Origin: a virus
Taxonomy: Duplodnaviria; Caudoviricetes
Virus record (IMG/VR): IMGVR_UViG_3300025389_001063
Length of the DNA stretch: 64,000 bases
Direction: 5' to 3' (one strand)
In this document: piece by piece, positions 32,534 through 52,690 of the stretch
How positions within the stretch are numbered: position 1 is the stretch's first letter
Layout of the letters: each line of letters starts with the position of its first letter
Translations under genes and position numbers: made by a program
The notes under the pieces: generated by a model
Databases searched by the model: none
Seen by the model: only the letters and a program-made list of their open reading frames with translations
What the model was told of the DNA's origin: nothing

Positions 32534-34594
32534 ATGCCCTTAAAACTAAGAAGAGGCACAAATGCCGAAAGAATAACTATAACACCCGCCGAAGGTGAAC
32601 TTATTTATTCGACAGATACTAAGAAAATTTATGTAGGTGACGGAATAACTCAAGGCGGTATTGACGTTACTGGGGCGGCCAGTTTATTTGGTCCTTTATC
32701 TGGAAATTTAGACATAAATCATTATAACATTACAGGTATAGGAAATGTCGAAGTTAATGGTATTATCAGTAACGGACCATTATCTTTAAATTCAAACTAT
32801 ATTTCAAGTTCTTCAGGTTATGTATCACAAGGACTAGGAAATCATATTGGAATTTTAGAATTAAGTACACCTACTAATCTTTTACAAATAAACAGATATT
32901 GGTCAGATCCTAACGAACCTATCGAAATACAGACAGGTATTACTAATAGTTTTACTTCGTTAATGTCTGATAGAAGAAGTTCTAGAGGATCTGTAGGTAT
33001 TCCTACAGCAACTATTCCTGGTGATAATATTGCTTTAGAAAGATTTTGGGGTCATGACGGATTTAATTATCTACCAACTTCAGCAATATGGCATGGTGTT
33101 GATCCCAACGGAACAGTATCTCCAGGATTTGTTCCTGGTGCTATAGCACTTATAACAGAAGGTATCGGCGGTCCACACGTTGTTAGTGTAGATTCAAAAG
33201 GAAATTTAGGAATAGGTGTATACCCTGAACTTGTACAGGAAAAACTACATGTAGAAGGTAATGCATTAATATCTGGAACTTTAATTGCAGGTGCAGTTAG
33301 AGGTTCAATTTTTGCTGATAACTCGAGTGTATTGATTGACAGTATATATGGTAATATGTATGCTAATAATTTGTCAGTTACTGGAATTTTAAATTGTGGA
33401 GAGACAGTACAAAAATCTCCAAACGGATATCTTGATATTTCTTCTAGATATGGAATTACCTCAGGTCTTACTTCGTTGATGACTGGAAATTATGCATCAA
33501 GAGGATCATTAGTTAGTCCTTCATCATTACACACTGGTGATTCAATTAGTTTTATAAGAAATTTTGGTCACGATGGAAGTAACTATGTATTTTCTTCTGG
33601 TATACAATTTGGATTAGATCCATCTATAAGTTCAAGTATAGCACCAAGTACAGGAAAAATGCCTGGTGCAATTGGTTTCATTGTTGTTGATGAAAATAAT
33701 ATCCAAAATTATGTTTCTATAGACTCAGCAGGACAAGTAGGTATTGGAACATTTCCTAATCCAACAACAGAGGCACTCGATGTTAATGGTAATGGTAAAT
33801 TTAGTGGTAGTATTACAACAACTTCAATACAACAAAATTTATCTTCAGGAGTTGACGCTACAAAACTATATGGTATTTCAGATGGTGTTAATTGTCTTGT
33901 AACTTCTAATTATGCATCAAGAGGTAGTTTACCATCACCATCTTCTCTCTATTTAGGTGATTCTATTTCTGCTATAAGAAATTATGGATTCGATGGTACC
34001 AACTATATACTTTCTTCTGCTATAGATTTTGTTTTAGATGGATCATATACTCCATCAACAGGTTATATGCCTGGAGCGATAGCATTTTTTGTTCAAGGAT
34101 CTTCTGGACAAAAAATAACAACTATTAATTCTAATGGTTATTTAGGAATTAATAAATTTCCAAGTGTAACTGAAGAAGCGCTCGATGTTAATGGTAATGG
34201 TAAGTTTAGTGGACACATTACTGTTAATAATTCTACAAATAATAGTTCAGTACAAATTACTGGTTATGCTAATAAAGGTGGTACTGGATATCATGACTTT
34301 ATGAGTGTCACTAACACTTATAGTAGTGCTACTAATCCTAACAAATATTTCCGTTTAGATTCATCTGGATCATTCCAAATTGTTGATAGTACTTATAATA
34401 ATACTTTATTCAATTTAACCAATGCCGGTCATACTATTGTTAGAGGTTATGTACAATTTGGTTCTTTCTCCGCTACAGAAAGAGCAGCATTAACTCCTGC
34501 TAACGGAATGGTTATCTATAATACTACTGCTAATAAATTCCAAGGTTATCAAAATGGTGGCTGGATCAATTTAGACACAGGTGCTGCTGCTTAA
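32534..34594 (+). CDS. tail fibre / receptor-binding protein with internal repeats
   Basis: N-terminus LKLRRGT...PAEGELIYSTDTKKIYVGDG typical of phage fibre anchors; three SRGS...GD...DG.NY...PGAI modules. Confidence 0.7.
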   Translation: MPLKLRRGTNAERITITPAEGELIYSTDTKKIYVGDGITQGGIDVTGAASLFGPLSGNLDINHYNITGIGNVEVNGIISNGPLSLNSNYISSSSGYVSQGLGNHIGILELSTPTNLLQINRYWSDPNEPIEIQTGITNSFTSLMSDRRSSRGSVGIPTATIPGDNIALERFWGHDGFNYLPTSAIWHGVDPNGTVSPGFVPGAIALITEGIGGPHVVSVDSKGNLGIGVYPELVQEKLHVEGNALISGTLIAGAVRGSIFADNSSVLIDSIYGNMYANNLSVTGILNCGETVQKSPNGYLDISSRYGITSGLTSLMTGNYASRGSLVSPSSLHTGDSISFIRNFGHDGSNYVFSSGIQFGLDPSISSSIAPSTGKMPGAIGFIVVDENNIQNYVSIDSAGQVGIGTFPNPTTEALDVNGNGKFSGSITTTSIQQNLSSGVDATKLYGISDGVNCLVTSNYASRGSLPSPSSLYLGDSISAIRNYGFDGTNYILSSAIDFVLDGSYTPSTGYMPGAIAFFVQGSSGQKITTINSNGYLGINKFPSVTEEALDVNGNGKFSGHITVNNSTNNSSVQITGYANKGGTGYHDFMSVTNTYSSATNPNKYFRLDSSGSFQIVDSTYNNTLFNLTNAGHTIVRGYVQFGSFSATERAALTPANGMVIYNTTANKFQGYQNGGWINLDTGAAA

Positions 34595-34607: not shown

Positions 34608-35168
34608 GTGTTTATACTCATTCCTTGGAAACGATCTTTAAACCTTGACGAGTTTTATGCTGAAGCGGCTCGTCGAGGTTTCGATAACAACTCCTCTCAA
34701 AAAAAGATGATCGATTGTCTAGCGAATGAGGATAAATGGGCTGCTTGGATCTTATATCAAAATAATAAACCTATAGGATCTGTAGCAGCCCATTCTTTTG
34801 ACAACATTATGGGTCCAAACAGTTATAGAATATGTGTAAGAACTTGTATATTACCACATGATCGAGAATACAAAGCAGTTATAACAGCAAAAAGAGCGAT
34901 AGCAGAACATCAAAATCTTACTTCACAATTCTTCATACCTAAATGCATAGATTGGACTGGAAAACATAATAATTTGTATATAACATCAAATGAGAATAGT
35001 AGCGGTTCTCAAAAATTAGTTCATACTATATTTTTTCCAACTCTTGCTAAAAAAGGAATTATGACTAAGATTAAAGATGTTCATTATAGAGGAACAGATC
35101 AAACTGTTTGGAAACTTAATGTAGATCTTTTTATAAAAGATTTAGTACATTATCCTAGATGGAATTAA
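34608..35168 (+). CDS. putative GNAT-like acyltransferase
   Basis: WILYQNNKPIGSVAAH...YRICVRTCILP pattern; weak resemblance only. Confidence 0.4.
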   Translation: MFILIPWKRSLNLDEFYAEAARRGFDNNSSQKKMIDCLANEDKWAAWILYQNNKPIGSVAAHSFDNIMGPNSYRICVRTCILPHDREYKAVITAKRAIAEHQNLTSQFFIPKCIDWTGKHNNLYITSNENSSGSQKLVHTIFFPTLAKKGIMTKIKDVHYRGTDQTVWKLNVDLFIKDLVHYPRWN

Positions 35169-35845
35169 CAACTTATAATAATATTAAAATCAGTAAATGG
35201 TAATAATTCTTGAACTTTATCAATAAATTGTCGTTCTACGTCAAACTTTACTATATTAGTACCATTAAAATTAAAATTATCAATAAGACCTCTCTTATTT
35301 GCTCTATTAAGCCAGGGACTTAATTTATGGTCAAATCTATAACGAGCATCACTGTCGATTTTAGATATATCAAGAGTAATAGTCATACTAACTCTATCTT
35401 TTAATTCACTATGAGTAAGTAATTGTCTCACAACTAATTGTGTTCTAGGAATACTACCAAAATTAGCAGCAACATGTAAACGACCTGCATCCATATCATA
35501 CCATATACCATCTTCTTCTACACGATGCATAATCTTATTATCTAAGTCAATTAGATATGCTTGCTCACCACGAATATTAAGATGCCAACGATCATCAATG
35601 TCTGCATGACTATAATAGTTAACACCCCTATCCAATGTAATAAGTCTTGCTTCTCCCTTTGGGTAAGGAAGGGAGTTATATATCTTTTCCCAGATTGTTC
35701 CTCTATATTCATCTTTTAATTCCCATTCATCATAAAAATAACTTGTTATAGGACGATTTATAGTAGTTCTATCATTTTCAGGGATAGACTCTTTTGCTTT
35801 TTCAATATCTTCTAAATCTACAGAATAAATGGTTTCTCTAATCAT
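35165..35845 (-). CDS. 2OG-Fe(II)/cupin oxygenase (Asp/Asn beta-hydroxylase-like)
   Basis: EARLITL...YYSHADID.RWHL and later DAGRLHVAANFG (HxD...H triad). Confidence 0.65.
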   Translation of the reverse strand: MIRETIYSVDLEDIEKAKESIPENDRTTINRPITSYFYDEWELKDEYRGTIWEKIYNSLPYPKGEARLITLDRGVNYYSHADIDDRWHLNIRGEQAYLIDLDNKIMHRVEEDGIWYDMDAGRLHVAANFGSIPRTQLVVRQLLTHSELKDRVSMTITLDISKIDSDARYRFDHKLSPWLNRANKRGLIDNFNFNGTNIVKFDVERQFIDKVQELLPFTDFNIIISC

Positions 35846-35897
35846 GAAAATATTTAGTGGAGTAATATGCTACTATAAATATTCTTGGAGAAAGCCT

Positions 35898-36734
35898 ATG
35901 GAAAAAGCAAACCTCGAACTACTAAGAGAAGCCTACGAAAAAAGTGAATTCAATAATATTATTCATAATGTTTCTGGTGTTTATATACCCTTAGACTTTA
36001 GTTGGAAGAATATAGGTATAGCTATGTCTGGTGGAATTGATAGCACTATGCTTTGCTATATACTTGCTGATTTAATTACTAAAAATAATTTAGATATAAC
36101 CATACATGTTACATCTCATGTGAGAGTTTGGAAATTTAGACCGTGGCAAAAAGATGTAAGTGAAAACGTATATAATTGGATGGTTAACCATTTTCCAAAT
36201 GTTAAATTTAAAAGATATGCTGGATTTATTCCACCAGATTTAGAATGGAAAAATAATGCTCCAACACTTGTTTTAAATGAGTACGGAGAAGAAGAATACG
36301 GTGATGTACTTGTTATGAGATCATTTGCTGAATTTGTTGGTTGGCATCAAAATTTTGACGCTTATTTTAATGCAACTACAATGAATCCAGATGATCCTAA
36401 TATTACATTGGCATTAGATGTTAGAAATCTTACCTCTCAAGATATAATCGATCATTTTGATTATACTATAAAATATTATCGACTAGGAGATAATGTAATT
36501 ACTTGTCATCCTTTTCGCTTTATTCAAAAAGATTGGATTGTTGGAAGATATAAAGAATTTGATATATGGAATCTTTTTGAAATGACACGAAGTTGTGAAG
36601 GTGATCGTAACGAATATCCAGAAACATTTGGAAATTTAGATTATAGAACATATAAGGTAGGAATGGAAGTTCCTACATGTGGTAAATGTTTTTGGTGTCA
36701 AGAAAGAGAATGGGGTATTAAGAATGCTTTTTAA
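35898..36734 (+). CDS. QueC-like PP-loop ATP pyrophosphatase
   Basis: SGGIDS PP-loop and C-terminal TRSC...CGKCFWC Zn motif. Exact TATAAATA at 35874-35881 and a GGAG RBS support ATG 35898. Confidence 0.7.
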   Translation: MEKANLELLREAYEKSEFNNIIHNVSGVYIPLDFSWKNIGIAMSGGIDSTMLCYILADLITKNNLDITIHVTSHVRVWKFRPWQKDVSENVYNWMVNHFPNVKFKRYAGFIPPDLEWKNNAPTLVLNEYGEEEYGDVLVMRSFAEFVGWHQNFDAYFNATTMNPDDPNITLALDVRNLTSQDIIDHFDYTIKYYRLGDNVITCHPFRFIQKDWIVGRYKEFDIWNLFEMTRSCEGDRNEYPETFGNLDYRTYKVGMEVPTCGKCFWCQEREWGIKNAF

Positions 36735-37813
36735 GCATTCTTAGTTCTTTCAATTGTTTCATCATCAAAATGATGTAATGATTTACTAAATCTACCGCAA
36801 TTTCTCACACAAGTTATTAACTTTTTATTATTTTCAAATATATATTCTTTAAAAAATTGATTCCATTCTTCAGAATTCATAATTTCTTTAATTGATGATT
36901 TTGTAGCGTCAAGTGTTTTAAATGTATTAAAAAAATCTTGATTTTCTTTACATGAAATTTTACGAAAGGGATCAAGCATATCATTATAAACAGGACTAGT
37001 AAAAGAAGTTTGACCAAGAAATCCACAAGGATAAACTTTTTTAACTGCATCGATATAAATGAATTGCCATTCAGTAGCTATACATTTAATTGTTGCTTCT
37101 TCAAGATAATCATGATAATTTTCTATTATTTCTTTAGTTATGCAGTCAGCAGTAGTATCAGTTGGTGGTTCTAAATAATAAAGATTATTACCATTCTTAT
37201 CAACAACTTTATATGGTTCATTATCTACATATCTAGAAGTATCTTTAACAGAAAAACTTTCAAAACCTAATTGTTTTGATAATTCTCTGCATTCATCGAC
37301 TTGATGTTGATTGTGTTTAAATCTTATAAACTCCCAACTAGTATTTCCTCCAACATCGATAAATGCTTTAGCATTACTGATAATTTTGTTCCAATCTGTT
37401 CCAATCCTGTATATTTTATGTGTATCTTCTAATCCGTCTATTCCAAAAAGAACTTGATGATTTGTTGGCATATAATTTATAAGATTTTTCCACCATTGTT
37501 CTTTAAAAATGCTACCATTAGTAAAAACTTGTACAGATATATTAGGATTTGATTCTTTAATATATTCAAGCATATATGGTAAATCTTTATTAATAACTGG
37601 ATCACCATAATGACCACAGAACATAATATGTTTAATCTGATTAATAACTTCAGTATTGAGAATTATTTTAAAATCTTCTAAAGACCAATCAGATAAAACA
37701 AAATTTGAATTTTTTAATCCTCCATATACATTTCGAACACACATAGGACACGATGCTTGACATCTACTAGTTATTTCAAGATGTAATGCCTTTAACTTAT
37801 CAAAAGTAAACAT
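36731..37813 (-). CDS. radical SAM enzyme with SPASM/twitch-like C-terminus
   Basis: CQASCPMC (CxxxCxxC), GHYGDP, FTNGS, and C-terminal C...VYPC...C..NC. Confidence 0.85.
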   Translation of the reverse strand: MFTFDKLKALHLEITSRCQASCPMCVRNVYGGLKNSNFVLSDWSLEDFKIILNTEVINQIKHIMFCGHYGDPVINKDLPYMLEYIKESNPNISVQVFTNGSIFKEQWWKNLINYMPTNHQVLFGIDGLEDTHKIYRIGTDWNKIISNAKAFIDVGGNTSWEFIRFKHNQHQVDECRELSKQLGFESFSVKDTSRYVDNEPYKVVDKNGNNLYYLEPPTDTTADCITKEIIENYHDYLEEATIKCIATEWQFIYIDAVKKVYPCGFLGQTSFTSPVYNDMLDPFRKISCKENQDFFNTFKTLDATKSSIKEIMNSEEWNQFFKEYIFENNKKLITCVRNCGRFSKSLHHFDDETIERTKNA

Positions 37814-38332
37814 TTAAATCTTCCAACGATCCCACCAGCCATGAATTCCTTTTCTTCCTTCAATTGATGTTATTAATTCTGATTTACCGCCATTAAGACT
37901 TAGAACAAAATTTACAACATCGTCTGGGCGTAATGGCTTATTATCAGGTATTGGCATTCCTGCTTTGTGAAATACATGAGCAACATAATGTGAACAAATT
38001 TCACTATCATATATATGAGGGTTCATATTGAACCCAACACGTAATGCATCAACAAAATGATACATTCTTCCTAATTTACGAACAGCACATCCTTCAACTT
38101 CATCTGTCCATTTAATTCCTGTAGGAATAACTACCACAGGTAAGTCTTCTTGGAGTAATCTTACACGAACACCACTATTCCATATTGCTTCTAGAACATA
38201 ATATCTTCTATGGAATTTCCATAAAATTCCAACATGACTAAATTCGCTTCTTGTAAATTTAGTTATTATATGTCCAACTAAACTAGTAGGTCGCCAGGCT
38301 AACAACGAACCGCTTGGATATTGTGAGATCAT
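37814..38332 (-). CDS. permuted papain-like amidase (YiiX/YaeF type)
   Basis: His before Cys: FSHVGI, YVLEA, ICSHYVA. Confidence 0.75.
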   Translation of the reverse strand: MISQYPSGSLLAWRPTSLVGHIITKFTRSEFSHVGILWKFHRRYYVLEAIWNSGVRVRLLQEDLPVVVIPTGIKWTDEVEGCAVRKLGRMYHFVDALRVGFNMNPHIYDSEICSHYVAHVFHKAGMPIPDNKPLRPDDVVNFVLSLNGGKSELITSIEGRKGIHGWWDRWKI

Positions 38333-38922
38333 TATTTTTTTCCTATTAACATATACCTTGTATATTTTGGTAATTCCTTTTCACCTGCCCAAAGAACGTT
38401 AATGTGACTCTGATCTCTAAAATCCTCTAAGGAGTTTGCAATCCGTACGTGTTCCGGAATGACATAATTGTTACTCTGTAATACTAATATACTATCTTTA
38501 GGCATATTATTCAACCACGTTTCGTAGTCTGCCTGTGTAATGTGTTCACAAGAGGTATTAATTATAACCTCTGCATTAGTATTTACGTCAATCATGTTAG
38601 AAGTTACTGCTGTAAATCTACCCTCTATTTCTTCTAACTTATTCATAGTGTATGCTGTGACTTCACACTCTGGATCTAAATCAAGAGATGTTATTCTGCT
38701 AATAGGAATTCCCGACTGGAATAATAAACTTGCTAATACACCAACCCAGCCGCCGTGAATATCTATTCTAACAGATTTTTTAATAAACGGTCTTAAATTT
38801 TCAATTAACCAAAGTTTTGAGTTAATTTGACCTTTCCAAAATGCTTCTAATGTTCTATTTTGATCTTTACTATTACGTATAGCATCCATCCAAAAAAGAA
38901 TATGATCAACGTTCAAATTCAT
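38332..38922 (-). CDS. class I SAM-dependent methyltransferase
   Basis: IDIHGGWVG glycine loop, SLDLD, VIINTSCEH. Confidence 0.75.
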   Translation of the reverse strand: MNLNVDHILFWMDAIRNSKDQNRTLEAFWKGQINSKLWLIENLRPFIKKSVRIDIHGGWVGVLASLLFQSGIPISRITSLDLDPECEVTAYTMNKLEEIEGRFTAVTSNMIDVNTNAEVIINTSCEHITQADYETWLNNMPKDSILVLQSNNYVIPEHVRIANSLEDFRDQSHINVLWAGEKELPKYTRYMLIGKK

Positions 38923-40519
38923 CTTTTAACCATTTCCAATCATTAATATTTTTTAACATCTGCTCATCGTTAGCATATTTAGATCCAAACTCTTTTCCTG
39001 CTATTGCTCCGTTAATAGCAAACTCGCCAAATGGCTTATCTATTCCAATATTACACCAAATTTCAAGTCTTCTTTGAGATTCTTCGTCAACTTGACCTTG
39101 TATAATTTTACTAGAAAGTTTTACACATTCTCTAAATGCTGACTTCCATGTATTAAATGGATCTGTATTAAATATTGTAACATTACTAACCTTATTAACT
39201 GATATGAATTTTTTACTAATAGAAGTTGTCATATCGACTGTATTAATATTCATTTCTATTACTGCTTGTGTAGGTAATAATTTTACACCACCATATCCAT
39301 ATATAAGATTGTTTACAGAATTTCTACTTTTAAAAACATATACTGCATCTCTATCCCAAATTGGAACTTCCATATAAAAATTAAAATCATCTTCTATAAT
39401 GGCATCACCGTCAACTGCCCAAAACATACTAGTTTGGCACATTTTTGCTGCCTCAACGTGAGCATTATGAATTCCTTTAATCCCCTGAACTCTCTTTGCT
39501 CTAGGAAATTTTTCTTTTAATTTTTTATAATTTTCATCTGCATTTGGTTCGTTGTAACTTATAAAAACAATATCAAAACACAAATAACTACATTCTATGT
39601 CAATTTCTTTTTTATTAATAAAAAAACTGTATTCTGCTTCTTTTTGTGTAATATTATATTTTTTAGGTATTAGATATAATCCACCGTAATCTCCAGTTTT
39701 ATTTTTAAAAACATGTACATATTCTTTATCATACTCAGGAACTATATAATCTAATTCAAAAGTAGGAATATAATCTTTGTCGATAGCATAAAACATTGTA
39801 GTTTTACAATATTTTTGTGCTTCAAAATAATCATCTGGGGTTGTTATCACAAATCTATCATAATTCAATTTACTTGCTACGATATCAATTTCTTTTTTAT
39901 TAACAAAGAAATTATATTGTGCTTCTTTTTGTGTAATATTATATCTTTTTGGAATCAGATACACACCCTTATATTCATTATGATCTTCCTTAAAGATATG
40001 AACATACTTTTGATCCCAATCTGGAACTATATAATCATTCTCAAATGTAGATTCATAATCTTTGTCGATAGCATAAAACATTTTAGTCTTACATTTTTTT
40101 TGTGCTTCAAAATAATCATCTGGGGTTGTTATCACAAATCTATTGTATGGAAGATAATATCCTGCTACAATATCGATTTCTTTTTTATTGACAAAGAAAT
40201 TATATTCTGCTTCCCTTTTTGTAATATTATATTTTTTAGGTATTAAATAAACACCTGTATATTCTTCTGTTCTATCTTTGAATATATGGACGTATTTTTC
40301 ATCCCATTCTGGAATTATATAATCAAACTTAAAATTATTTTCTATTTCAAATCCTTCACTTATTATCCAAAAAAACTTAGACATAGATTTTTTTTGTGCT
40401 ACAAAAAATGCTTCCCAAGATTTATCTTCATAATTAGCAAGTTTTAATAAAGGAAATTTTTCCTGTAATTTTAAAAATCCATAATCTTTTTCTTTAGATA
40501 TATAAAAAATATCATACAT
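38906..40519 (-). CDS. GT-A fold glycosyltransferase-like protein with three N-terminal repeats
   Basis: C-terminal DIVFISYNEP...WAVDGDAII (DxD) preceded by about 95-aa repeats. Confidence 0.65.
   Translation of the reverse strand: MYDIFYISKEKDYGFLKLQEKFPLLKLANYEDKSWEAFFVAQKKSMSKFFWIISEGFEIENNFKFDYIIPEWDEKYVHIFKDRTEEYTGVYLIPKKYNITKREAEYNFFVNKKEIDIVAGYYLPYNRFVITTPDDYFEAQKKCKTKMFYAIDKDYESTFENDYIVPDWDQKYVHIFKEDHNEYKGVYLIPKRYNITQKEAQYNFFVNKKEIDIVASKLNYDRFVITTPDDYFEAQKYCKTTMFYAIDKDYIPTFELDYIVPEYDKEYVHVFKNKTGDYGGLYLIPKKYNITQKEAEYSFFINKKEIDIECSYLCFDIVFISYNEPNADENYKKLKEKFPRAKRVQGIKGIHNAHVEAAKMCQTSMFWAVDGDAIIEDDFNFYMEVPIWDRDAVYVFKSRNSVNNLIYGYGGVKLLPTQAVIEMNINTVDMTTSISKKFISVNKVSNVTIFNTDPFNTWKSAFRECVKLSSKIIQGQVDEESQRRLEIWCNIGIDKPFGEFAINGAIAGKEFGSKYANDEQMLKNINDWKWLKDEFER
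39640..40340 (-). repeat. 285-bp tandem duplication within the GT gene
   Basis: TGTGCTTCAAAATAATCATCTGGGGTTGTTATCACAAATCTAT at 39816 and 40101; YLIPK.YNIT..EA.Y.FF.NKKEIDI occurs three times. Boundaries approximate. Confidence 0.9.
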
Positions 40520-40521
40520 TA

Positions 40522-41418
40522 CTAGCGTTTTCTTCCAATAATTCTAGGTGTATTTTGATACACTCTCTTAAAAAACTTTGAAGCATTAGAATCCATTTCT
40601 GCAATTTCGAGTTGTAACTCAATTCTTAGACTTTCTCCAATATTAAGAATTTGTTCGTCTATATTATCATTGTTGATTTTAGGTTCTATTTCTTCTTTCC
40701 AGTAATTTGTAAGATATTTAAAATCTCTTACATTGATATAATCCCATTTTGTACAATTAGTTTTATAACAACCTAAACGAGATCCATAGATTGCCCATTT
40801 ACCATTTTTAACATCAGCACCAACACTCATCCATATTAATAATCTTTGATAATTTTGCCACCAAACACTTTGTATATCATTTGTTCTTTGAGCTCTATTA
40901 AGACTCATTTTTACACCTTCTCTAAACCCTGCTCTCCAGGCTTGAAAAGGTGAACCGTTTATATAACTTGTTGAGTAATGTTGATTAAATTGATAATAAC
41001 GCGGATCAAAACAAAATTCTAAAACACTTTCTTGATCATTAGGATCTGAATTTTCATGAGTTTTCATATTAAGAACAAAATCTTTTGTCCAGCATTTTAA
41101 TCCACCGTTACCATATATAAGACCATTAACTGCATTTTTTCCTGCCCACGAAAACACATAATCTTTATTCTTATCATCTATCTCTATTTCTTGAGTATAA
41201 AATTCAGGATCTACAATATTATCACCATCAACAGTAATAAATCTATCTGTTTCGCTTAAATTGGCGGCGGCTTTGTGAGCAGCATCGCTTCCATCTACAC
41301 CATGTACTCTTTTAGCCCAAGGCAATATGTTAAGCAATTCTGAATAATGCTTATCTGCATTAGGTTCATCATAACTTATAAAAATTGTATCGATTTCATG
41401 AAGAACTAATTTTGTCAT
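40522..41418 (-). CDS. GT-A fold glycosyltransferase-like protein (paralogue of the adjacent gene)
   Basis: IFISYDEPNAD, ITVDGDNIV, NGLIYGNGGLK, FQAWRAGFREGVK. Confidence 0.65.
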   Translation of the reverse strand: MTKLVLHEIDTIFISYDEPNADKHYSELLNILPWAKRVHGVDGSDAAHKAAANLSETDRFITVDGDNIVDPEFYTQEIEIDDKNKDYVFSWAGKNAVNGLIYGNGGLKCWTKDFVLNMKTHENSDPNDQESVLEFCFDPRYYQFNQHYSTSYINGSPFQAWRAGFREGVKMSLNRAQRTNDIQSVWWQNYQRLLIWMSVGADVKNGKWAIYGSRLGCYKTNCTKWDYINVRDFKYLTNYWKEEIEPKINNDNIDEQILNIGESLRIELQLEIAEMDSNASKFFKRVYQNTPRIIGRKR

Positions 41419-42079
41419 CTCTTATATCCACATGTAAATAATTTTGAAAATATCTTATTGAAAAAATTGTTACGTCTTCACCATTAAATCTATCTATAGT
41501 TTTGTCATTATTAGCTCGATCTTTAAAATTTATAATATAATAGTCAGTATCGTTTGTTAAATCGTCTAAAGTAAGATTTAAAGTTTTATATAAAATATTA
41601 GGATCGTATGGTGCTGTAACATATAAAGATATTTTATAGAATCCCATACTCTGATTCTTATATTTTAATTTGTTTTCATCTGACAATTTAATTCTAAATT
41701 CTCCTTTTATATTATCTTGTTCAATCAATAAATCAAAGGATTCTTCAATTTTTTTGTCTTCTTTACTTTTAATTTTGGGCAATTCGTAGATAAAATCATC
41801 GATTCTAGTTAAAGATAAATCCTCAGGAACACAAGATTCTATTTTAGATTTACCATCTTCAACTACAACTCGATAATTTGCTATATTAAATTTTTGTAAA
41901 GGCTCAGTTAAATCTTTTTCTTCAAGAATAACAAAAGGAAAAGGATCGGTAGAATCTAAATAATTCCTAAAATTAATTATTTTACCAGAAGAAACCTCGT
42001 AATGAACATAAAAGGATGGTCTTTTATTAAGTGCTTCTTCTTGCTTTCTTAAATATTCAAAAATTTCTTCTTCTGTCAT
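41396..42079 (-). CDS. hypothetical protein
   Basis: About 227 aa; ATGA overlap supports start at 42079. Confidence 0.6.
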   Translation of the reverse strand: MTEEEIFEYLRKQEEALNKRPSFYVHYEVSSGKIINFRNYLDSTDPFPFVILEEKDLTEPLQKFNIANYRVVVEDGKSKIESCVPEDLSLTRIDDFIYELPKIKSKEDKKIEESFDLLIEQDNIKGEFRIKLSDENKLKYKNQSMGFYKISLYVTAPYDPNILYKTLNLTLDDLTNDTDYYIINFKDRANNDKTIDRFNGEDVTIFSIRYFQNYLHVDIRDDKISSS

Positions 42080-42936
42080 TTTGAATCCCAAATATTTAAT
42101 ATTTTTTCATATTTTAAAATTCTATCATCATTTAAAAAATTCTTTTCTGTATAATGAAAGATACCTGTTTGCTGATAGTTTCCAATTTTTAATCGGCAAT
42201 CATCATTAAAATAAGATCCAACATCATTTGTCCACTTTTCAGTACAAATACTCCATTTTTGATCATGACTTTTCATATGAGTAAATGTAGGATAATCTAA
42301 ACTAGAAAATACTTCATTCTCTATGCCTAAAATCTTTACTGCTAATGCAAAAGCCACATCAATACTAAGACGAACAGGTTTTGCTTCTTTTAAAAATCTA
42401 TTATAACAGTTTTTCCAATCTTTAACAATTAATTCAACCAATTCCCAAAACTGTTTTGACAATTCTGTTTTTTTAAAATAAGTGAATGCGCTATAGCAAT
42501 TAGGAAGATCGTTTTTAAAAAATGTTTCTCTATAATAAGAATTTGTTATTAATTCATTTCTATATGTAAAAACTTTATCTGTAATGAGTAAATCAAAATT
42601 TTTACCCATATAACTCCACCACTGACTAACATCCGACAAAAATAGCATATCAGAATCTAATATTACTGTTTCTTCGTATGGAGATATATGATATAATTTC
42701 CATCGATTTTCTATTTTCCATTCAGAATTAAAAGCATCATCGTACCATTTGATAGGTAAAACTTGATCAAAAACATTATAATAATGTTTAGGAACAGCAT
42801 CGGGGATATCAGTAACTAAAGTTATTTTATTAATTTTAGATTGTGTTAATTTAATAGACATAGCCAATGCATATGCCATTTTAACATAATCATCAACTCC
42901 GTTATTTTGTGCAAGAACTAAGTATCCTTTATCCAT
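42076..42936 (-). CDS. GT-A fold glycosyltransferase (DxD)
   Basis: GYLVLAQN, SPYEETVILDSDMLF, IDVAFA. Confidence 0.7.
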   Translation of the reverse strand: MDKGYLVLAQNNGVDDYVKMAYALAMSIKLTQSKINKITLVTDIPDAVPKHYYNVFDQVLPIKWYDDAFNSEWKIENRWKLYHISPYEETVILDSDMLFLSDVSQWWSYMGKNFDLLITDKVFTYRNELITNSYYRETFFKNDLPNCYSAFTYFKKTELSKQFWELVELIVKDWKNCYNRFLKEAKPVRLSIDVAFALAVKILGIENEVFSSLDYPTFTHMKSHDQKWSICTEKWTNDVGSYFNDDCRLKIGNYQQTGIFHYTEKNFLNDDRILKYEKILNIWDSK

Positions 42937-43810
42937 TAATTACCTCTAGCAATTTTTCTTCATGTCTACCAATACTAAATTTATTCATTATATGAACATT
43001 TTGATTATTCGTTTTTGCTAATGTATATTCACCAAGATGCTGTTTCTTTTGAACTAAAAAAATAAAAGATTTATCGTTATCAACTCTTATTAATTCATCT
43101 CTATCTAATGTATAATAAATTTCACATGGCAACGATGATGGATTTATCTTATTATTAAATCCTCCCATTATATGGATTGCTATACTAAACACATAATCAT
43201 TACGGAGTAAAGGAGCAGTTATTCTATAAGCAAATCGATAATATTCATAATTTTCTACAATATGTTGACATAACCCAAAAAACGTTTTTGTCCACAAATT
43301 CTTTTTAAAGTAAAATGCCGTGGCCCAAAAGAAATCAATTCCTTGATCGCTGACTCTATCAAATTCAACAGCATTTCTATCATTTGCTAAATCATAAGAT
43401 ATTCTATTAATCATAAAATCTTCATCTGAATCCCAAACATTATTAAGACGATCATTGACTATTAATAAATCTACATCTATAACTAAGGTTTGATCATAAG
43501 GAGTTAATTCATATGCCCAAGCTCTGTGTGCATTTTTAAAATCTGCTTTTTTAAAGTCTAAAGATCCATCATAATATCTTCTATGTTGGTTAACATTAAT
43601 ATTCAATTCACTTGTTAAAATTATTTTATCAAATATTTTTTCTAAATCTAACTTATCTTCTTCTTTCATCCACCCTAATGTTCCTTCATTGGTTACTAAA
43701 CTAATTGGAACATTTAAATTCTTCTTAACAAAGTGAGCAGAAATATATGCCATTTTGCCATAATCTATTTGAGAATTATTATATGCAAAAAACAATACAC
43801 CTTTACTCAT
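42929..43810 (-). CDS. GT-A fold glycosyltransferase (DxD), paralogue of the adjacent gene
   Basis: GVLFFAYN, TPYDQTLVIDVDLLI, RNDYVFSIA. ATG at 43810. Confidence 0.7.
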   Translation of the reverse strand: MSKGVLFFAYNNSQIDYGKMAYISAHFVKKNLNVPISLVTNEGTLGWMKEEDKLDLEKIFDKIILTSELNINVNQHRRYYDGSLDFKKADFKNAHRAWAYELTPYDQTLVIDVDLLIVNDRLNNVWDSDEDFMINRISYDLANDRNAVEFDRVSDQGIDFFWATAFYFKKNLWTKTFFGLCQHIVENYEYYRFAYRITAPLLRNDYVFSIAIHIMGGFNNKINPSSLPCEIYYTLDRDELIRVDNDKSFIFLVQKKQHLGEYTLAKTNNQNVHIMNKFSIGRHEEKLLEVING

Positions 43811-44162
43811 TTTCAATATCCATAATTTTTGCTATCGATCTCTTAGATTTTATCTCTATGTATTGATGATAATAAGAGTTTGTAGCCTCAACATAGATAG
43901 AAAAAATATTGTCTAAAAATAATTTAACATCGCTTATCATAAAAGGATTTTCAAAATCATCTAATATAACAATATCTTCAGAATGTCCTAAAGTAACTAG
44001 AGTTGATAAAAAATTAATTAATTCTCTATTAACTGTAAATCTGTGTCCAGATTCGTGATATAAACAATTTTCTTTAAATTCTTGTTTTAATAAATCTCTT
44101 TGAGTTCCAAAAGTTACCATTAAATTGGCTACATCGAGTGCTTTTTTTAGACGATCGTCCAT
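43803..44162 (-). CDS. hypothetical protein, possible tail-assembly accessory
   Basis: 119 aa directly after the tail genes; GGAG RBS and ATAAGTA upstream. Confidence 0.55.
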   Translation of the reverse strand: MDDRLKKALDVANLMVTFGTQRDLLKQEFKENCLYHESGHRFTVNRELINFLSTLVTLGHSEDIVILDDFENPFMISDVKLFLDNIFSIYVEATNSYYHQYIEIKSKRSIAKIMDIENE

Positions 44163-44219
44163 AGATATTCTCCAACGTACTACTTATTATAGCATCAGTT
44201 AATATAAAAAAATATCGAA

Positions 44220-45182
44220 TTATGATCCAGATGTTAAACTTGTCGTTGTAGTAGGAGTTGGCGCTGTAACATTAACATTTGTTCCAGATGGCCTATACAT
44301 ACGAACTGTATTTGTAACTGTTCCTGTTACATATTCATCTATACCAAATGGAGGATGCAAAGTAGTCTTTTTGTCTTGAAGATATAATTTAAGATAAAGA
44401 TATCTTGCTCCACCATTAGTATTACTAGCCACATCACACGATACTGTAAATTTCATATCGTTAGTAGCATACATTGATGCTCCATTAATTTGTCCACCAG
44501 ATCTAATATAAATTTGTTGTTCGGTATTTGTTAATTGATAAAAACCAATAGAACTTACTTGAGTTCCAGATAATGAAAAGTTCTTATAACTAAAAGAAAA
44601 TGTTCCAACATTTATAACAGCATTCCAGTCGTTATTAATTAAAGTTGACGATGATGGAGAAAAAGAAGGAGTAATGTTTATAACACCTCCTGCATTAAAA
44701 AAATATCTAGCATTATCTGCTGATCCAAAATCTAAAGTAAAGAAATGATCAATTTCTACGTTCCATTGAGTCGTTCTACTTGATGTTAATAACGATTCAT
44801 CGGAATATTGTCCTGCTGCTATTTTATATATATTTGATGAATTAGTTACTACCGTCAATGCATTTTGCAATGCAGTAACATCTGTAGCAGAAACTTTGGT
44901 TGTAGTAGTTATTGTAGGTAAAGTAGGTATAGAAGTTAGAGTTCCTGATGTCCAACTAGGATTTTGAAGTAACCCTTGATGACCTGCTAATTTTAATAAA
45001 TCAGTTTTTATATTTGCCCAATGAACCTGTCTAATTTTGTTTATTGTAGCTACAGATGTTGGAGACATAGTTAATGTTTGTCCGTATCCAGAACTTCCTG
45101 ATCCTGTACCTAAAACAGTATTAAGGGGTGTGTAAAAAGCATTATAATCAGCCGCTTTTATTTTTGAACTTTTAGTTGCCAT
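44220..45182 (-). CDS. virion structural protein (tail/baseplate-associated)
   Basis: Thr/Ser-rich; DFGSADNARYFFNAGG motif shared with the neighbour. Confidence 0.6.
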   Translation of the reverse strand: MATKSSKIKAADYNAFYTPLNTVLGTGSGSSGYGQTLTMSPTSVATINKIRQVHWANIKTDLLKLAGHQGLLQNPSWTSGTLTSIPTLPTITTTTKVSATDVTALQNALTVVTNSSNIYKIAAGQYSDESLLTSSRTTQWNVEIDHFFTLDFGSADNARYFFNAGGVINITPSFSPSSSTLINNDWNAVINVGTFSFSYKNFSLSGTQVSSIGFYQLTNTEQQIYIRSGGQINGASMYATNDMKFTVSCDVASNTNGGARYLYLKLYLQDKKTTLHPPFGIDEYVTGTVTNTVRMYRPSGTNVNVTAPTPTTTTSLTSGS

Positions 45183-45237
45183 GATGATACCTATCTTTCT
45201 AATAATTTATCTCTAAGAAAGCAGGTGAGTAATTTTT

Positions 45238-46248
45238 TTAGATATTTGTTAATATTCTAGTATTAAATCCAGTAGGAGCAACAACATTAACATTTGATCC
45301 AGATGCTCTACGAATAGAAACATTGCTTGTTAATGTTCCATCAACCCAATCTTTGTGGTAGTAGTGAGTTACTTTAGAACTATGAGCATCATCAAAATAT
45401 ATAGTCACATAAATTTTACTTGCTCCGCCATTGGAATTATTTTCAATATCACAAGACATTGTTACATAGTAATGATTTACTGAGTAATGAGAACTATATG
45501 TAGAATCTCCTGCCATAGTAAAAACTGTTTGTGCATTATTAGTTAATTGATAAAAACCAATAGAACTTCCAGATCCTACACTATTGCTACTTGTACAAGA
45601 ACTATGATCAAAAATTATAGTTCCCATGTTATTTAATGTTCTTGTCCAAGACAAATTCTGCTGAGAAACTCTGCCACCTGTTCTAGATGCAGAAAGTCTT
45701 AAACTACTGCCACTGTTGAAAAAATATCTAGCTGCTTGTGGATTTCTAAAATCTATTGTAAAAGCATGTCTAACAGTTTCTCCACCATACAATTGTGCTG
45801 ATTTATAAGAACTATTATTTCCCCAAGGAAGAACTCTATTATTTGACAAATCTGGTGACAATAATTCATCTGAATATTGACCTGAACCTAGTAAAAATCT
45901 ATTTGTAGATAGAAAATTTAAACAACTTTGATAGGCTTGAAGATGACTTGCTAAAATAATATCGTGCTGATTAATTGTTGGAAGATTAGTAATATGAGAA
46001 TCATTTTGAAGACCACAGTGTGTTGCTACTTTAATAATATCAGATTTTAATTTAGCAATTTGAACTGCTTTTACTTCATCTACAACACTTGTAACTTGAC
46101 CACTCAAAAGAGTTTGCCCATAACCATAAGTTGCAGCAATTGGATCATTCGGATAATTAGTAACTTGATCTCCTAATATCCTAGAAAGAAATGATTGTAA
46201 GTCATCGAAATCAGTTGATCTAATTAGTGCGCCTGTAGTTGTGGTCAT
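45238..46248 (-). CDS. virion structural protein, paralogue of 44220-45182
   Basis: GYGQ and DF....ARYFFN.G, SSIGFYQLTN, C-terminal G.NVNV.APT. Confidence 0.6.
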   Translation of the reverse strand: MTTTTGALIRSTDFDDLQSFLSRILGDQVTNYPNDPIAATYGYGQTLLSGQVTSVVDEVKAVQIAKLKSDIIKVATHCGLQNDSHITNLPTINQHDIILASHLQAYQSCLNFLSTNRFLLGSGQYSDELLSPDLSNNRVLPWGNNSSYKSAQLYGGETVRHAFTIDFRNPQAARYFFNSGSSLRLSASRTGGRVSQQNLSWTRTLNNMGTIIFDHSSCTSSNSVGSGSSIGFYQLTNNAQTVFTMAGDSTYSSHYSVNHYYVTMSCDIENNSNGGASKIYVTIYFDDAHSSKVTHYYHKDWVDGTLTSNVSIRRASGSNVNVVAPTGFNTRILTNI

Positions 46249-46265
46249 ATTTTACATCCCCAATA

Positions 46266-47855
46266 TTAAAGTATGACTGCCATTACTACGCCTGGATCGC
46301 TGTCAACCTTGTCTTCGATAGATTTAGCAAACACAGATGTATGTGGATATCCAACTCCGTCTCCAATAGATACAGCGTATCCCGGATTTGATGAGGTTAC
46401 CAATACATCTCCCTTATGAACAGGACCAACAACTTTTACAGGAACTTTTCCTCTAAGTGCTACTGGTAAGTAATCTGCTGTTTCTCCGCTGTCGTTCATT
46501 AAGTATGCAGGATTAGTTGATATAACACCTGCTACTCTACTATCTGCTAATTTCATAGTAAGTGTGATTTCTTTATTTCCACCAAATACTACTACTGTTC
46601 CTGGTTCATAAACATTATCTGCTTCATATTTCTCTGCCAAGTCAGCATATTGTGCTCTTGTAGCAATAGCATCAATTGTTCCTGCTGCAAAATTACCATT
46701 GTTATCTCTAGCAACAATAGTATTATTTGTATTAGTAGCTGTTGAAACAACATACTTTGTAAGATCAGCAGGATTTGGCGGAGTTCCGTTTGCATAATCA
46801 AAATACAAAGTTTTTGCTCTATCAGATGTACCTACTACATTTCCTATGAAGTTACCTCCATGAAAATTATCAGCATATATGTCTTTAGCATATATGTTTC
46901 TCCATCTAAGCAATGGTTCACCTAAATCGTATGTATCTGTAAGTCCCGGATCAACTGCACTACCTAGAATTTGCATAGTTTCTTTAACTATAGTACCGTC
47001 TTTTATTTTAAAAATAATATTATTTGATTGTGTATTTTGAATAGTTGGAATAGAACTAACAATACCTACACTGAGTGTTTGATTAATACCACCTACTGTA
47101 AATCCGTTAGTATCAAACTGAGATGTTCCGTAAAAAACAGAATCTTGAGCAAGTACATATTCATGCGCTGCATGGAATGTGCTAGTTGTTGCATCTAACA
47201 TTCCATCTGCAGAACTAGCAGTTCCCCAATAGCGATCACCATTAGTTGATACTCCCGAAGAATTATTTGCATCAACTATAGTCATACCAGCATGTATAGT
47301 TCCAAAACCTACAATAGGATTAACTGTCTCATTTAAATTGAAAGTATCTTTAGAAATAATAAATTCTATTTTATCATTAATAAATGCTTCCATAATTGCA
47401 TGTTTATTATTCTGATCGTCTAGAACACTAACACTTTCCCATTGAGTTATTCCCAATCCAGCAACTGCTTGAGGACCAATAAGAACAAATTTAGATATTC
47501 CATCAAAAGCATATAACTGGTTAGAATCAGTATTCCACCAAAAATCGCCAGTAGTTAATCCTGGGGGTTCAGTTGGGCCAATCTCTGCACCACCTGTAGT
47601 TCTCCAATGTAGAGCATCCCAAAATTTTAATTTTCTGTTTGCAGAATCGTACCATATCTGTCCACTAAGAGCATTTGGAGGAGCAGCAGTATTGGAAAAA
47701 TTTTCCATCAAATACACAAAATTTTCATTTTGTATATCACCGTATCCTGCGTAATTTTTACCTATTAACTGGATAGTAGTACTACTATTATTTAGAGTAC
47801 CCTCATCAACGGTTACTAGTGGTGATCCGTTATATCTATTAATTTGATATGGCAT
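46266..47855 (-). CDS. tail fibre/baseplate protein with C-terminal chaperone-like domain
   Basis: Shared N-terminal GKNY.GYG...ENF..L.ENF...GQIWYD; C-terminal YADLAEKY...VALRGKVPVKV. Confidence 0.7.
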   Translation of the reverse strand: MPYQINRYNGSPLVTVDEGTLNNSSTTIQLIGKNYAGYGDIQNENFVYLMENFSNTAAPPNALSGQIWYDSANRKLKFWDALHWRTTGGAEIGPTEPPGLTTGDFWWNTDSNQLYAFDGISKFVLIGPQAVAGLGITQWESVSVLDDQNNKHAIMEAFINDKIEFIISKDTFNLNETVNPIVGFGTIHAGMTIVDANNSSGVSTNGDRYWGTASSADGMLDATTSTFHAAHEYVLAQDSVFYGTSQFDTNGFTVGGINQTLSVGIVSSIPTIQNTQSNNIIFKIKDGTIVKETMQILGSAVDPGLTDTYDLGEPLLRWRNIYAKDIYADNFHGGNFIGNVVGTSDRAKTLYFDYANGTPPNPADLTKYVVSTATNTNNTIVARDNNGNFAAGTIDAIATRAQYADLAEKYEADNVYEPGTVVVFGGNKEITLTMKLADSRVAGVISTNPAYLMNDSGETADYLPVALRGKVPVKVVGPVHKGDVLVTSSNPGYAVSIGDGVGYPHTSVFAKSIEDKVDSDPGVVMAVIL

Positions 47856-47897
47856 TCTAGAAGCTCCTGAACTTTCGTGGTCCGTTTTAAGTATTTA

Positions 47898-52674: not shown

Positions 52675-52690
52675 AATAAACTCACTTTAT

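Follow-up and report, generated by a model that had tools for sequence, protein, structure and literature searches.

What does a tailed phage build with four glycosyltransferases encoded directly after its fibre genes, and on which acceptor? The question is raised by IMG/VR virus record IMGVR_UViG_3300025389_001063 (Duplodnaviria; Caudoviricetes), of which we analysed a stretch of 64,000 nucleotides (nt), hereafter the window. A reading of the sequence alone (the original prediction) had described positions 34608-44162 as one tail-linked tailoring pathway that would decorate virion proteins or the host surface. Comparison with related loci narrows this to a cassette of six genes, p119-A2-A1-X-B1-B2, which is the conserved unit of the locus and is appended at the 3' end of the distal fibre operon. 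It is very likely that this cassette is a glycan-building unit of four glycosyltransferases, and its relatives suggest that the acceptor is a peptide or protein. The cassette, the two virion protein genes before it, and a promoter element between them are listed here in the order of transcription.

45238-46248, minus strand: F336, F320-family virion protein and candidate acceptor, a paralog of F320 by family alignment; its homolog gp360 of phage PA5oct is found in virions
44220-45182, minus strand: F320, Ser/Thr-rich virion protein and candidate acceptor; last structural gene before the cassette
44186-44194, minus strand: TGCTATAAT, a perfect extended -10 element in the 57-bp gap 5' of p119, ending 23 nt before the ATG
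43803-44162, minus strand: p119, conserved small protein, first cassette gene; present in 69 of 80 related loci and as ORF354 of phage RsoM2USA
42929-43816, minus strand: A2, putative GT8-like GT-A glycosyltransferase with a DVD motif, assigned by paralogy with A1 and its invariant DxD; 73 of 80 loci
42076-42936, minus strand: A1, putative GT8-like GT-A glycosyltransferase with a DSD motif, assigned by predicted fold, profile, and DxD; 77 of 80 loci
41396-42091, minus strand: X (X231), fast-evolving protein always encoded between A1 and B1; positional ortholog in 76 loci
40522-41418, minus strand: B1, putative GT-A glycosyltransferase of a new family, with FISYDEPNA and VDGD motifs and a C-terminal helical domain, assigned by predicted fold, motifs, and fusions
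38906-40519, minus strand: B2, three degenerate GT-A half-domains followed by a complete B-type domain, assigned by paralogy with B1 and repeat analysis

The four glycosyltransferases form two pairs. A1 and A2 are paralogous (BLASTP, 3e-12), as are B1 and residues ~314-537 of B2 (2e-35), and no relationship between the pairs was detectable by sequence comparison. The AlphaFold2 model of pair A, made for A1 (predicted local distance difference test score, pLDDT, 89.5; predicted template modelling score 0.90) was matched by Foldseek with probability 1.0 to the GT8 enzymes glycogenin, XXYLT1, LARGE1, and UGGT (TM-score up to 0.55), and by the Atlas to a PF03407/PF01501 cluster (TM-score 0.65). 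The family profile matches glycogenin at 2.4e-6 over residues 13-108 alone, which hold the nucleotide-binding and DxD region, and D94-x-D96 is invariant in 17 pair-A sequences, paralog A2 included. A PDB search with the single A1 sequence gave nothing useful, and the pair has no Pfam match, lying below the PF01501 threshold. Pair A and the GT8 enzymes are thus alike in fold, nucleotide-binding region, and DxD motif, at ~12% identity, and the model confirms the pair as GT8-like GT-A proteins with a putative transferase activity.

Pair B was modelled on B1, with a pLDDT of 94. Its N-terminal ~155 residues are predicted to form a GT-A domain, which is followed in B1 by a helical domain (residues 157-298) with few structural matches. 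The top Foldseek match of B1 is the capsid glycosyltransferase A64R of Paramecium bursaria chlorella virus 1 (PBCV-1; probability 1.0); others are RmlT (0.96-1.0), TarP/TarS, the peptide S-glycosyltransferases SunS/ThuS, and WrtF. VIA-align gave Z-scores of 8.5-10.2 to many GT-A enzymes over ~135-145 residues within residues ~2-155. Among 54 diverse pair-B homologs, D66 of the VDGD motif is invariant and D64 is at least 90% conserved; in the first-strand motif FISYDEPNA, S15, E18, and P19 are conserved. The B domain is fused C-terminally to GT1/GT28-type GT-B glycosyltransferases in 5 of the 10 long homologs scanned and in one shorter form (P0287, P0302, P0317, P0336, P0366, P0316). Pfam GT2 families did not match the B1 protein of the window and gave one weak match per family in the 54 members (E ~2e-3 to 6e-3). 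The best PDB profile match of pair B was weak (GmaR, E 0.14), and a PDB search with the A1 alignment of pair B gave nothing useful. The family is very large: grouping at 90% identity gives at least 8000 clusters and grouping at 50% gives 1289, and none of them carries a Pfam domain. In B2, residues ~1-313 (39581-40519, minus strand) repeat the N-terminal GT-A half-domain three times in degenerate, truncated form, and copies 2 and 3 keep D-K-D. Repeat number varies among B2 orthologs, which fall into length classes of ~225, 330-374, 450, 560, and 678 residues; these half-domains could be acceptor-binding modules or decayed duplicates. The model thus confirms pair B as a new A64R/GT2-like GT-A family of putative transferases. 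With these predicted folds, the BLASTP scores, and the invariant aspartates, the two paralogous DxD pairs of the original prediction are borne out.

Synteny was counted in 80 fetched related loci; IMG/VR holds at least 591 relatives of B1. In these loci the genes follow one same-strand order, TF710-TF657-TF529-F320/F336-p119-A2-A1-X-B1-B2, with the cassette genes present in 69-80 of the 80 loci and the fibre genes in 47-54 (47 loci have at least 5 kb of upstream flank). Searching cultured phages by tblastn with B1 and A1 gave a single carrier, the jumbo phage RsoM2USA of Ralstonia, whose proteins are ~31-46% identical and encoded in the same order (ORF354-347), 3' of the genes of the sheath and of virion proteins confirmed by mass spectrometry (MS). 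A nucleotide search of cultured phages with the locus gave no match. The Pseudomonas phage PA5oct has the same structural operon, ending at the F320 homolog gp360, with no cassette after it, and gp360 was detected in PA5oct virions by electrospray ionization tandem MS. Since this operon ends at an MS-detected protein and lacks the cassette, F320-type proteins are taken as genuine virion components and p119-to-B2 as an add-on unit. Linkage across ~80 diverged contigs and RsoM2USA upholds the proposal of a phage-encoded glycan-building system tied to fibre genes, and the expected synteny of the block with tail genes in relatives is conserved for the six cassette genes.

Bacterial relatives of pair B bear on the nature of the acceptor. 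In bacterial GT-B::B-domain proteins, the B domain is ~42% identical to phage B1, and in all four contexts with an upstream flank (L087, L088/L089, L090, L094) the gene adjoins small open reading frames (ORFs) with double-glycine leaders and Pro/Ser/Thr/Gly-rich cores, a type of context seen for peptides that are made by the ribosome and modified after translation (RiPPs). Both L087 and L088 encode C39-peptidase ABC exporters, L088 also encodes an AprE/HlyD-type adaptor and a 409-residue radical S-adenosylmethionine (SAM) enzyme, and a conserved partner protein of ~235 residues recurs in L087, L088, L093, and L094. The L088 radical SAM enzyme is a full-length homolog (1e-13 to 3e-49) of a ~444-474-residue radical SAM enzyme whose gene comes directly after that of B1 in RsoM2USA (ORF349) as well as in 18 phage loci, and all of them, L088 included, carry the motif CN(F/L)(K/R)CxYC. 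Because the pairing of a B-type glycosyltransferase with this radical SAM enzyme is common to the bacterial RiPP-type clusters and the phages, a peptide or protein acceptor is favoured over DNA or lipid. The bacterial clusters themselves may be an undescribed class of glycosylated RiPPs.

Two features of these bacterial clusters (L088 2212-12250, L087 4876-11984, L090 581-4914, L094 392-5724) deserve mention: the precursor core starts with YG or xPYG, and each cluster carries one or two GT-B::B-domain fused glycosyltransferases. A correspondence between this core start and the GYGQ that is invariant in the F320 family was considered and rejected, as PA5oct gp360 has GYGQ without a cassette.

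Among virion proteins, the F320 family is the candidate by position and composition. The gene directly 5' of p119 is of the F320/F336 type in 51 of 63 loci. F320-type proteins hold 23.5% Ser+Thr against a background of 12.9%, and 30% against 13% in their last 30 residues. The family has a conserved C-terminal block, RxSGSNVxV..P, with an invariant Pro308, followed by a short Ser/Thr-rich tail; PA5oct gp360 is without this tail (a single comparison).

The reading that we favour, and to which we give just short of an even chance, is that four transferases acting in sequence glycosylate a virion fibre protein in the cytoplasm, with lineage-specific tailoring by enzymes encoded in an island behind the cassette. 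At the 3' end of the distal fibre/baseplate operon, in a lineage of ~350-kb phages, the cassette would supply four soluble DxD glycosyltransferases that use nucleotide sugars in the cytoplasm and build a short glycan stepwise on a protein. The likeliest acceptor would be the Ser/Thr-rich F320/F336-type virion protein encoded just upstream, or else another fibre protein. The minimal and commonest form of the cassette would draw on the nucleotide sugars of the host. Where a hypervariable island follows B1/B2, as in some lineages, its tailoring enzymes would make the decoration more varied; in the window these are a methyltransferase-like protein, a C92 amidase, and a radical SAM enzyme, and in other lineages radical SAM enzymes, sugar epimerases, aminotransferases, oxygenases, and kinases. 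In most relatives, a host-type promoter of its own would let synthesis of the enzymes precede that of the fibres or run separately from it, as in chloroviruses. Any part that the QueC-like protein, the oxygenase, and p186 of the window have in making the glycan is putative.

Several observations weigh against this reading. That any virion protein is modified is itself an inference. None of A1, A2, B1, and B2 is called a glycosyltransferase by Pfam, NCBIfam, or PHROGs, the fold of pair B also matches nucleotidyltransferases of the same fold class (Z ~9), and the GT8 family also includes transferases of the lipopolysaccharide (LPS) core (WaaJ/LgtC). In PA5oct, an F320-type virion protein is made although no cassette is present. 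The peripheral enzymes are missing from most relatives, and a QueE-like gene at 22319-23170 suggests that the QueC-like protein may serve a deazaguanine DNA-modification locus instead. Finally, expression of the cassette appears to be deliberately uncoupled from that of the fibres, and an early role directed at the host would explain this just as well.

The first issue is how much of the locus belongs to the glycan pathway. In 53 of the 80 loci, a convergent ThyX gene starts 0.64-2.7 kb past B1, B2 is the last gene, and there are no other tailoring enzymes. The interval exceeds 6-10 kb in ~15 loci and reaches ~45 kb in contig G004 (the contig of L008, ~35-80 kb). In the window it holds the following features.

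38332-38922, minus strand: p196, probable Rossmann-fold SAM methyltransferase, assigned by motifs; a sporadic partner of B2
37814-38332, minus strand: permuted papain-like C92 (YaeF/YiiX-type) amidase, assigned by Pfam; closest relatives only
36731-37813, minus strand: radical SAM enzyme of 360 residues (rSAM360) with a SPASM/twitch-like C-terminal region and the motif CQASCPMC, assigned by Pfam; last gene of the minus-strand block
36717-36745, both strands: hairpin (13-bp stem) where the convergent QueC-like and radical SAM genes meet, resembling a terminator in either direction
35829-36734, plus strand: divergent QueC-family PP-loop protein, probable true start Met24 at 35898; TATAAATA upstream
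35165-35845, minus strand: p226, probable AspH-type 2-oxoglutarate (2OG)-Fe(II) oxygenase, assigned via its ortholog; divergent from and overlapping the QueC-like gene
34608-35168, plus strand: p186, the earlier GNAT-like (GCN5-related N-acetyltransferase-like) protein; an island gene travelling with rSAM360

The original prediction placed all of these directly 3' of the tail genes and mostly co-oriented with them. This holds for the nine minus-strand genes from 44162 down to 36731, which overlap or abut and lie directly 3' of the fibre genes (44220-63949) in the same orientation; the genes at 34608-35168 and 35829-36734, both on the plus strand, and the separated gene at 35165-35845 fall outside this block. 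The notion of one pathway for the whole locus has to be given up, as p119-A2-A1-X-B1-B2 alone is conserved and the remaining enzymes belong to an island missing from 53 of the 80 loci.

As to what these proteins are, the radical SAM and amidase assignments withstood the searches, and those of the PP-loop protein and the oxygenase are supported through motifs and homologs. rSAM360 matches PF04055 with 41.1 bits (cutoff 29.5) and SPASM weakly, with CQASCPMC at residues 18-25; it is distant (8e-5) from the RiPP-associated radical SAM enzymes and does not belong to the family partnering B1, and PDB searches gave nothing useful. The amidase scores 30 bits with PF05708 (cutoff 27) and matches NCBIfam YiiX weakly. 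The QueC-like protein has an SGGIDS motif and a C-terminal Cys cluster (C...CGKCFWC) resembling a zinc site; it has no PF06508 match, a weak TilS match, 21 bits with PP-loop (cutoff 27), and a match to phrog_1550 (6e-6), PDB searches gave nothing useful, and 3 of 103 homolog clusters carry PF06508 and two are named QueC by the Joint Genome Institute. Since its homologs span 235-278 residues, the first 23 codons of the ORF are probably untranslated and the true start is probably Met24. p226 has an HxD...H pattern and no Pfam match of its own, and its ortholog in G004 (31% identity, 2.8e-17) matches the Asp/Asn hydroxylase family PF05118 with 30.5 bits (cutoff 22.6), which supports an AspH-type 2OG oxygenase. 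The methyltransferase stands as probable only: in p196, GGWxG (GGWxGxL) and DxD are invariant, an INTSxEH motif is present, the type is Rossmann, and Atlas features match methyltransferase-named clusters, with no Pfam or PDB match. The GNAT-like label of p186 was not confirmed, as neither the protein nor its G004 ortholog gave a match to a Pfam family (up to E 10) or to entries of PHROGs and NCBIfam.

The distribution of these genes is sporadic. p196 was found in 7 loci and as ORF347 of RsoM2USA, and the C92 amidase in 2 loci. The closest relative has the order B2-p196-C92-rSAM360-p186-Mtd_N-ThyX, without p226 and the QueC-like gene. In G004, the order is B1, a 10-kb insert, B2, p196, p186/rSAM360/p226/QueC-like, a paralog of rSAM360, and the replication module, the same relative order as in the window; rSAM360 there accompanies p186, p226, and the QueC-like gene in a sub-cluster 12-17 kb past B2 in which the divergent p226/QueC-like pair is kept. 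That this sub-cluster is a module apart from the cassette was considered and rejected, the whole-contig map placing it in the same inter-module island. In other relatives the island encodes one to four radical SAM enzymes of ~460 residues, a 2OG oxygenase, an NAD-dependent sugar epimerase/dehydratase, a methyltransferase, a cyclase resembling dehydroquinate (DHQ) synthase, a RuBisCO-like protein, a fructosamine-kinase-like kinase, a fragment of a DegT-type aminotransferase, and a kinase with a cytidylyltransferase-like region. The content of the island has a clear carbohydrate-tailoring flavour; the junction could also be simply a permissive insertion site. The island of G004 (compare loci L085, L083, and L086) combines RuBisCO-like, DHQ-synthase-like, and fructosamine-kinase-like proteins and the DegT fragment with two AspH-type oxygenases and several radical SAM enzymes.

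The best-surviving alternative concerns these peripheral enzymes. The QueC-like protein, the AspH-type oxygenase, p186, rSAM360, and the C92 amidase may work outside the glycosyltransferase pathway, having gathered at a permissive junction of the convergent structural and replication modules, and we hold this a real possibility, somewhat below an even chance. The absence of the island from 53 of 80 relatives, the closest relative without the QueC-like and p226 genes, and the distance of the G004 sub-cluster from B2, with its conserved divergent pair, all speak for it. The retained relative gene order of G004 within one island, the wealth of sugar-tailoring enzymes in the islands of relatives, and the tight block in which p196, C92, and rSAM360 overlap or abut the glycosyltransferase genes of the window point the other way. 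For the QueC-like gene in particular, with a chance that we rate similarly, the role could lie in 7-deazaguanine chemistry, either in modifying DNA jointly with the locus at 16-23 kb that contains QueE, or in protein deazaguanylation of the QueC-family kind; QueC-family enzymes conjugate deazaguanine to proteins in the CBASS (cyclic oligonucleotide-based antiphage signalling system) and Qat systems. The gene lies on the opposite strand, and the QueE-like gene would supply a partner. It also has its own late-type motif, which sets it apart from the cassette and at the same time is unexpected if the gene serves DNA modification. Altogether, for the peripheral genes, and above all for the QueC-like gene, we put tailoring of the glycan and a function that has nothing to do with it at about equal odds.

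A second possibility touches the origin of the cassette rather than its extent. It could be a phage-domesticated RiPP-type maturation system, in which pair B and its partner radical SAM enzyme were recruited with two GT8-like enzymes to place glycans, and in lineages with an island also radical-SAM-dependent modifications, on a full-length virion fibre protein. We regard this as doubtful; if true, it would mean natural-product-style chemistry on the receptor-binding apparatus of a phage, diversifying rapidly like an O-antigen locus. The nearest described systems are the glycocin RiPPs (SunS/SunT, ThuS, pallidocin), where a ribosomal peptide with a double-glycine leader and a C39-ABC exporter is the substrate of a GT-A glycosyltransferase whose C-terminal domain is helical. 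SunS/ThuS are among the fold matches of B1, and the bacterial pair-B homologs adjoin double-glycine precursors, as in glycocins. The bacterial clusters differ from these in using a GT-B::B-domain fusion and a radical SAM enzyme rather than a SunS-type enzyme. In the window, no small ORF with a double-glycine leader was found on the cassette strand at 36.7-47.9 kb, and no C39-peptidase ABC exporter domain of Pfam in the proteins encoded at 28.8-49.9 kb. Since the phage cassette has neither leader peptide nor exporter, it is not a glycocin cluster.

The timing of expression brings in the main rival explanation. The original prediction had noted late-promoter motifs at the starts of several genes. 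Of the strict T4 late motif TATAAATA, the 64 kb hold a single copy against ~15 expected, at 35874-35881 on the plus strand, 17 nt before Met24 of the QueC-like gene. The relaxed form ATAAATA is four-fold depleted (13 copies in the window against 50 expected), and at least 9 copies lie within 40 nt 5' of gene starts on the coding strand, including those of TF529, p224, the Mtd_N protein, and the QueC-like gene (sites at 1262, 2615, 4570, 9422, 25162, 32500, 35875 [+/-], 47892, and 52688). ATAAATA is thus likely to be the late-promoter core of this phage, looser than that of T4. None was found between 47.9 and 36.7 kb, so that late motifs at the cassette starts were not recovered. The nearest one upstream of the cassette is the following.

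47892-47898, minus strand: ATAAATA late-type motif, 37 nt 5' of the TF529 fibre gene; the nearest upstream of the cassette on that strand

Terminator-like hairpins within 34-47 kb were found at ~36.7 kb alone, so that read-through from the TF529 motif could span the whole block. The hairpin at 36717-36745, where the QueC-like (plus) and radical SAM (minus) genes overlap by 4 nt, is likely a bidirectional terminator. A generic scan of 34-47 kb for sigma70 promoters and terminators gave no enrichment over shuffles (72 versus 85).

The related loci are more informative. Their gap 5' of p119 has a median of 62 nt. About 20-70 nt upstream of the p119 ortholog, a sigma70-type promoter with at most 2 of 12 mismatches was found in 38 of 56 unique sequences (10 of them perfect), against 1.4 in shuffles (maximum 4). 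Its -10 element ends ~20 nt before the p119 ATG; at the position of the full promoter in relatives, the window keeps the perfect extended -10 alone. Of 35 sequences evaluated, 17 have a fully paired ribosome-binding site (RBS) when the RNA includes the region 5' of the -10, and none has one when it starts after the -10 (median folding energy, -14.9 kcal/mol for read-through RNA and 0 kcal/mol for promoter-start RNA). The 5' arm of this hairpin lies in the spacer between the -35 and -10 elements, pairs with the RBS, and is missing from transcripts that start at the promoter (loci L002-L081, e.g., L060, L021, L007, and L078). RBS occlusion in T4 follows the same logic; in the phage cassette, the hairpin instead favours the host-type promoter over late-gene read-through. 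These sequence features indicate that in most relatives the cassette is its own unit for the host RNA polymerase and that its first gene is insulated from fibre read-through in about half of the relatives evaluated; the promoter in 38 of 56 sequences and the occluded RBS in 17 of 35 are what argues for uncoupling from the fibres. Sigma70-type promoters also precede plus-strand metabolic genes in the window and are therefore probably early or middle promoters. Late co-expression of the cassette is thus not supported.

An early cassette would suit enzymes that act on the host. The cassette could glycosylate a host surface component (LPS core, flagellin, pilin, or a porin receptor) and so block superinfection or the adsorption of progeny to infected cells and debris. 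Its linkage to the fibre genes would then reflect the co-evolution of receptor-binding and receptor-masking functions, the logic by which llp of phage T5 adjoins the gene of its receptor-binding protein. The sigma70-type promoter and the insulation from fibre read-through agree with this, as do the GT8 fold that LPS-core transferases also have, the hypervariable island expected in a surface arms race, and the fibres of PA5oct that manage without a cassette. We nevertheless judge it unlikely. The proteins of the cassette lack transmembrane segments, and neither the cassette nor the islands examined encode a membrane protein, flippase, ligase, or lipid-carrier enzyme. The RiPP-type peptide contexts of pair B and its radical SAM partner likewise argue against it, a host protein target still being allowed. 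The original prediction took early-only expression as refuting virion glycosylation; an early-type promoter does not refute it, because in PBCV-1 all six glycosyltransferase genes are early and the capsid protein is late.

Fibre glycosylation stays the favoured reading. Of the two cassette proteins other than the transferases, p119 has a mean column identity of 57% among orthologs, no match in family libraries or in PDB sequence and profile searches, and no counterpart in PA5oct. X has a mean column identity of 31%, almost no invariant residues, and no match in family libraries or PDB searches; its near-invariant C-terminal Tyr was considered as a special signature and rejected, as it resembles an ordinary strand motif. 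These two proteins give rise to a further alternative, in which a non-virion polypeptide such as p119 or X is matured into a glycosylated product that targets the host or competing phages or cells. In its favour are the RiPP-type clusters of the bacterial relatives, the conserved positions of p119 and X together with their lack of an enzymatic signature, and the rapid evolution of X, a frequent trait of substrates and specificity factors. Set against this are the lack of a double-glycine-leader ORF and of a C39 exporter in the cassette, the abutting genes that leave no space for a hidden precursor, and the size of p119 (119 residues) and X (~200 residues), far above that of typical precursors, and we hold such a product improbable.

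Hypermodification of phage DNA bases by the four transferases, suggested by the many phage glycosyltransferases that act on DNA (PMC12619734), the early-type promoter, and the ThyX and deazaguanine genes nearby in the window, is very improbable in view of the conserved linkage to fibre rather than base-synthesis genes even where gene order differs, the peptide-type contexts of the bacterial homologs, and the separate, unrelated GT-B gene already present within the deazaguanine locus.

Among known systems, one that is close in logic to virion glycosylation by the cassette is the capsid-glycan machinery of PBCV-1 (A064R, A111/114R), where A064R combines two glycosyltransferases with a methyltransferase. 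PBCV-1 has soluble DxD GT-A enzymes accompanied by a methyltransferase, a glycan on a virion protein, and early genes for a late substrate; the cassette would match it in these respects under the reading proposed here. The likeness is limited: A64R and B1 are 14-20% identical with a TM-score of ~0.3-0.4, just the N-terminal ~150 residues aligning, and PBCV-1 is a eukaryotic giant virus with multidomain fusions and atypical N-glycans on its capsid, without a GT8 pair, p119, X, or radical SAM partners. That giant viruses decorate their own fibrils, as the original prediction noted, is documented for the Megavirinae, whose clade-specific clusters of 6-33 genes (glycosyltransferases, nucleotide-sugar enzymes, methyltransferases) adjoin the gene of the decorated fibril protein. 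Like the cassette and its island, these clusters adjoin a fibril gene and vary strongly between close relatives; unlike them, they belong to giant viruses of amoebae and hold mostly GT2-type enzymes and rare amino-sugar pathways, with no radical SAM arrays and no RiPP-type relation.

Tailed phages also encode virion glycosylation. In mycobacteriophages, according to PMC12619734, which cites Freeman 2023 (Cell Host Microbe), phage-encoded glycosyltransferases modify the C-termini of capsid and tail-tube subunits. These are siphoviruses of actinobacteria in which capsid and tail tube are modified and not fibres, and their likeness to the cassette is one of description. A 2025 paper reported four core glycosyltransferase orthogroups in another aquatic jumbo-phage lineage and left their role unresolved; this moraphage lineage, with genomes of at most 307 kb and Bacteroidota hosts, probably differs from that of the cassette. 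Our literature search found no paper describing the phage cassette or the bacterial type of GT-B::B-domain/radical SAM cluster. The earlier statement that the pathway is uncharacterised therefore stands for the cassette and has to be qualified for phage virion glycosylation in general, which is known in mycobacteriophages. What is new is the enzyme families that libraries do not recognise, the jumbo phages of Gram-negative type, the position in the fibre operon, and the kinship to bacterial RiPP-type clusters.

That viruses encode the glycosylation of their own virions has been established in giant viruses and mycobacteriophages, and not in jumbo phages of Gram-negative bacteria or for tail fibres. 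With the numbers of B1 clusters and of IMG/VR stretches given above, the cassette is very widespread, and it stands beside host-recognition genes. If the fibres are decorated, this could affect host range, stability, and recognition by host defences, and structure models of fibres would have to allow for it. If the host is modified instead, the cassette would be a new kind of superinfection-exclusion module. In either case, the bacterial homologs beside double-glycine precursors hint at a class of peptides, so far undescribed, that carry both glycans and radical SAM modifications, and RsoM2USA offers a culturable system for the cassette.

The rest of the window belongs to a large AT-rich phage genome (GC fraction ~0.27-0.40); the B1 protein is on record on a contig of 352.5 kb. 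The enzyme locus sits between two convergent modules. On the minus strand, 63.9-44.2 kb encode a giant virion protein of at least 3752 residues, three fibre/baseplate proteins with a common N-terminal module, and the two paralogous Ser/Thr-rich proteins F336 and F320. On the plus strand, 1.6-34.6 kb hold a module for replication and nucleotide metabolism (DNA polymerase, exonuclease, QueE-like radical SAM enzyme, MoxR-type ATPase, DUF2201/VWA protein, and ThyX). Kinship between the GT-B gene of the deazaguanine locus and the GT-B part of the fused enzymes from bacteria was considered and rejected. The plus-strand module ends with a fibre-like protein of 686 residues with an Mtd_N domain (32534-34594, plus strand). 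No template/variable repeat pair of the diversity-generating retroelement type was found at this gene, just an in-frame internal duplication of ~420 nt at ~70-76% identity (repeats at 33448-33816 and 33868-34221). The gene closes the "early" strand, yet it has a late-type ATAAATA upstream.

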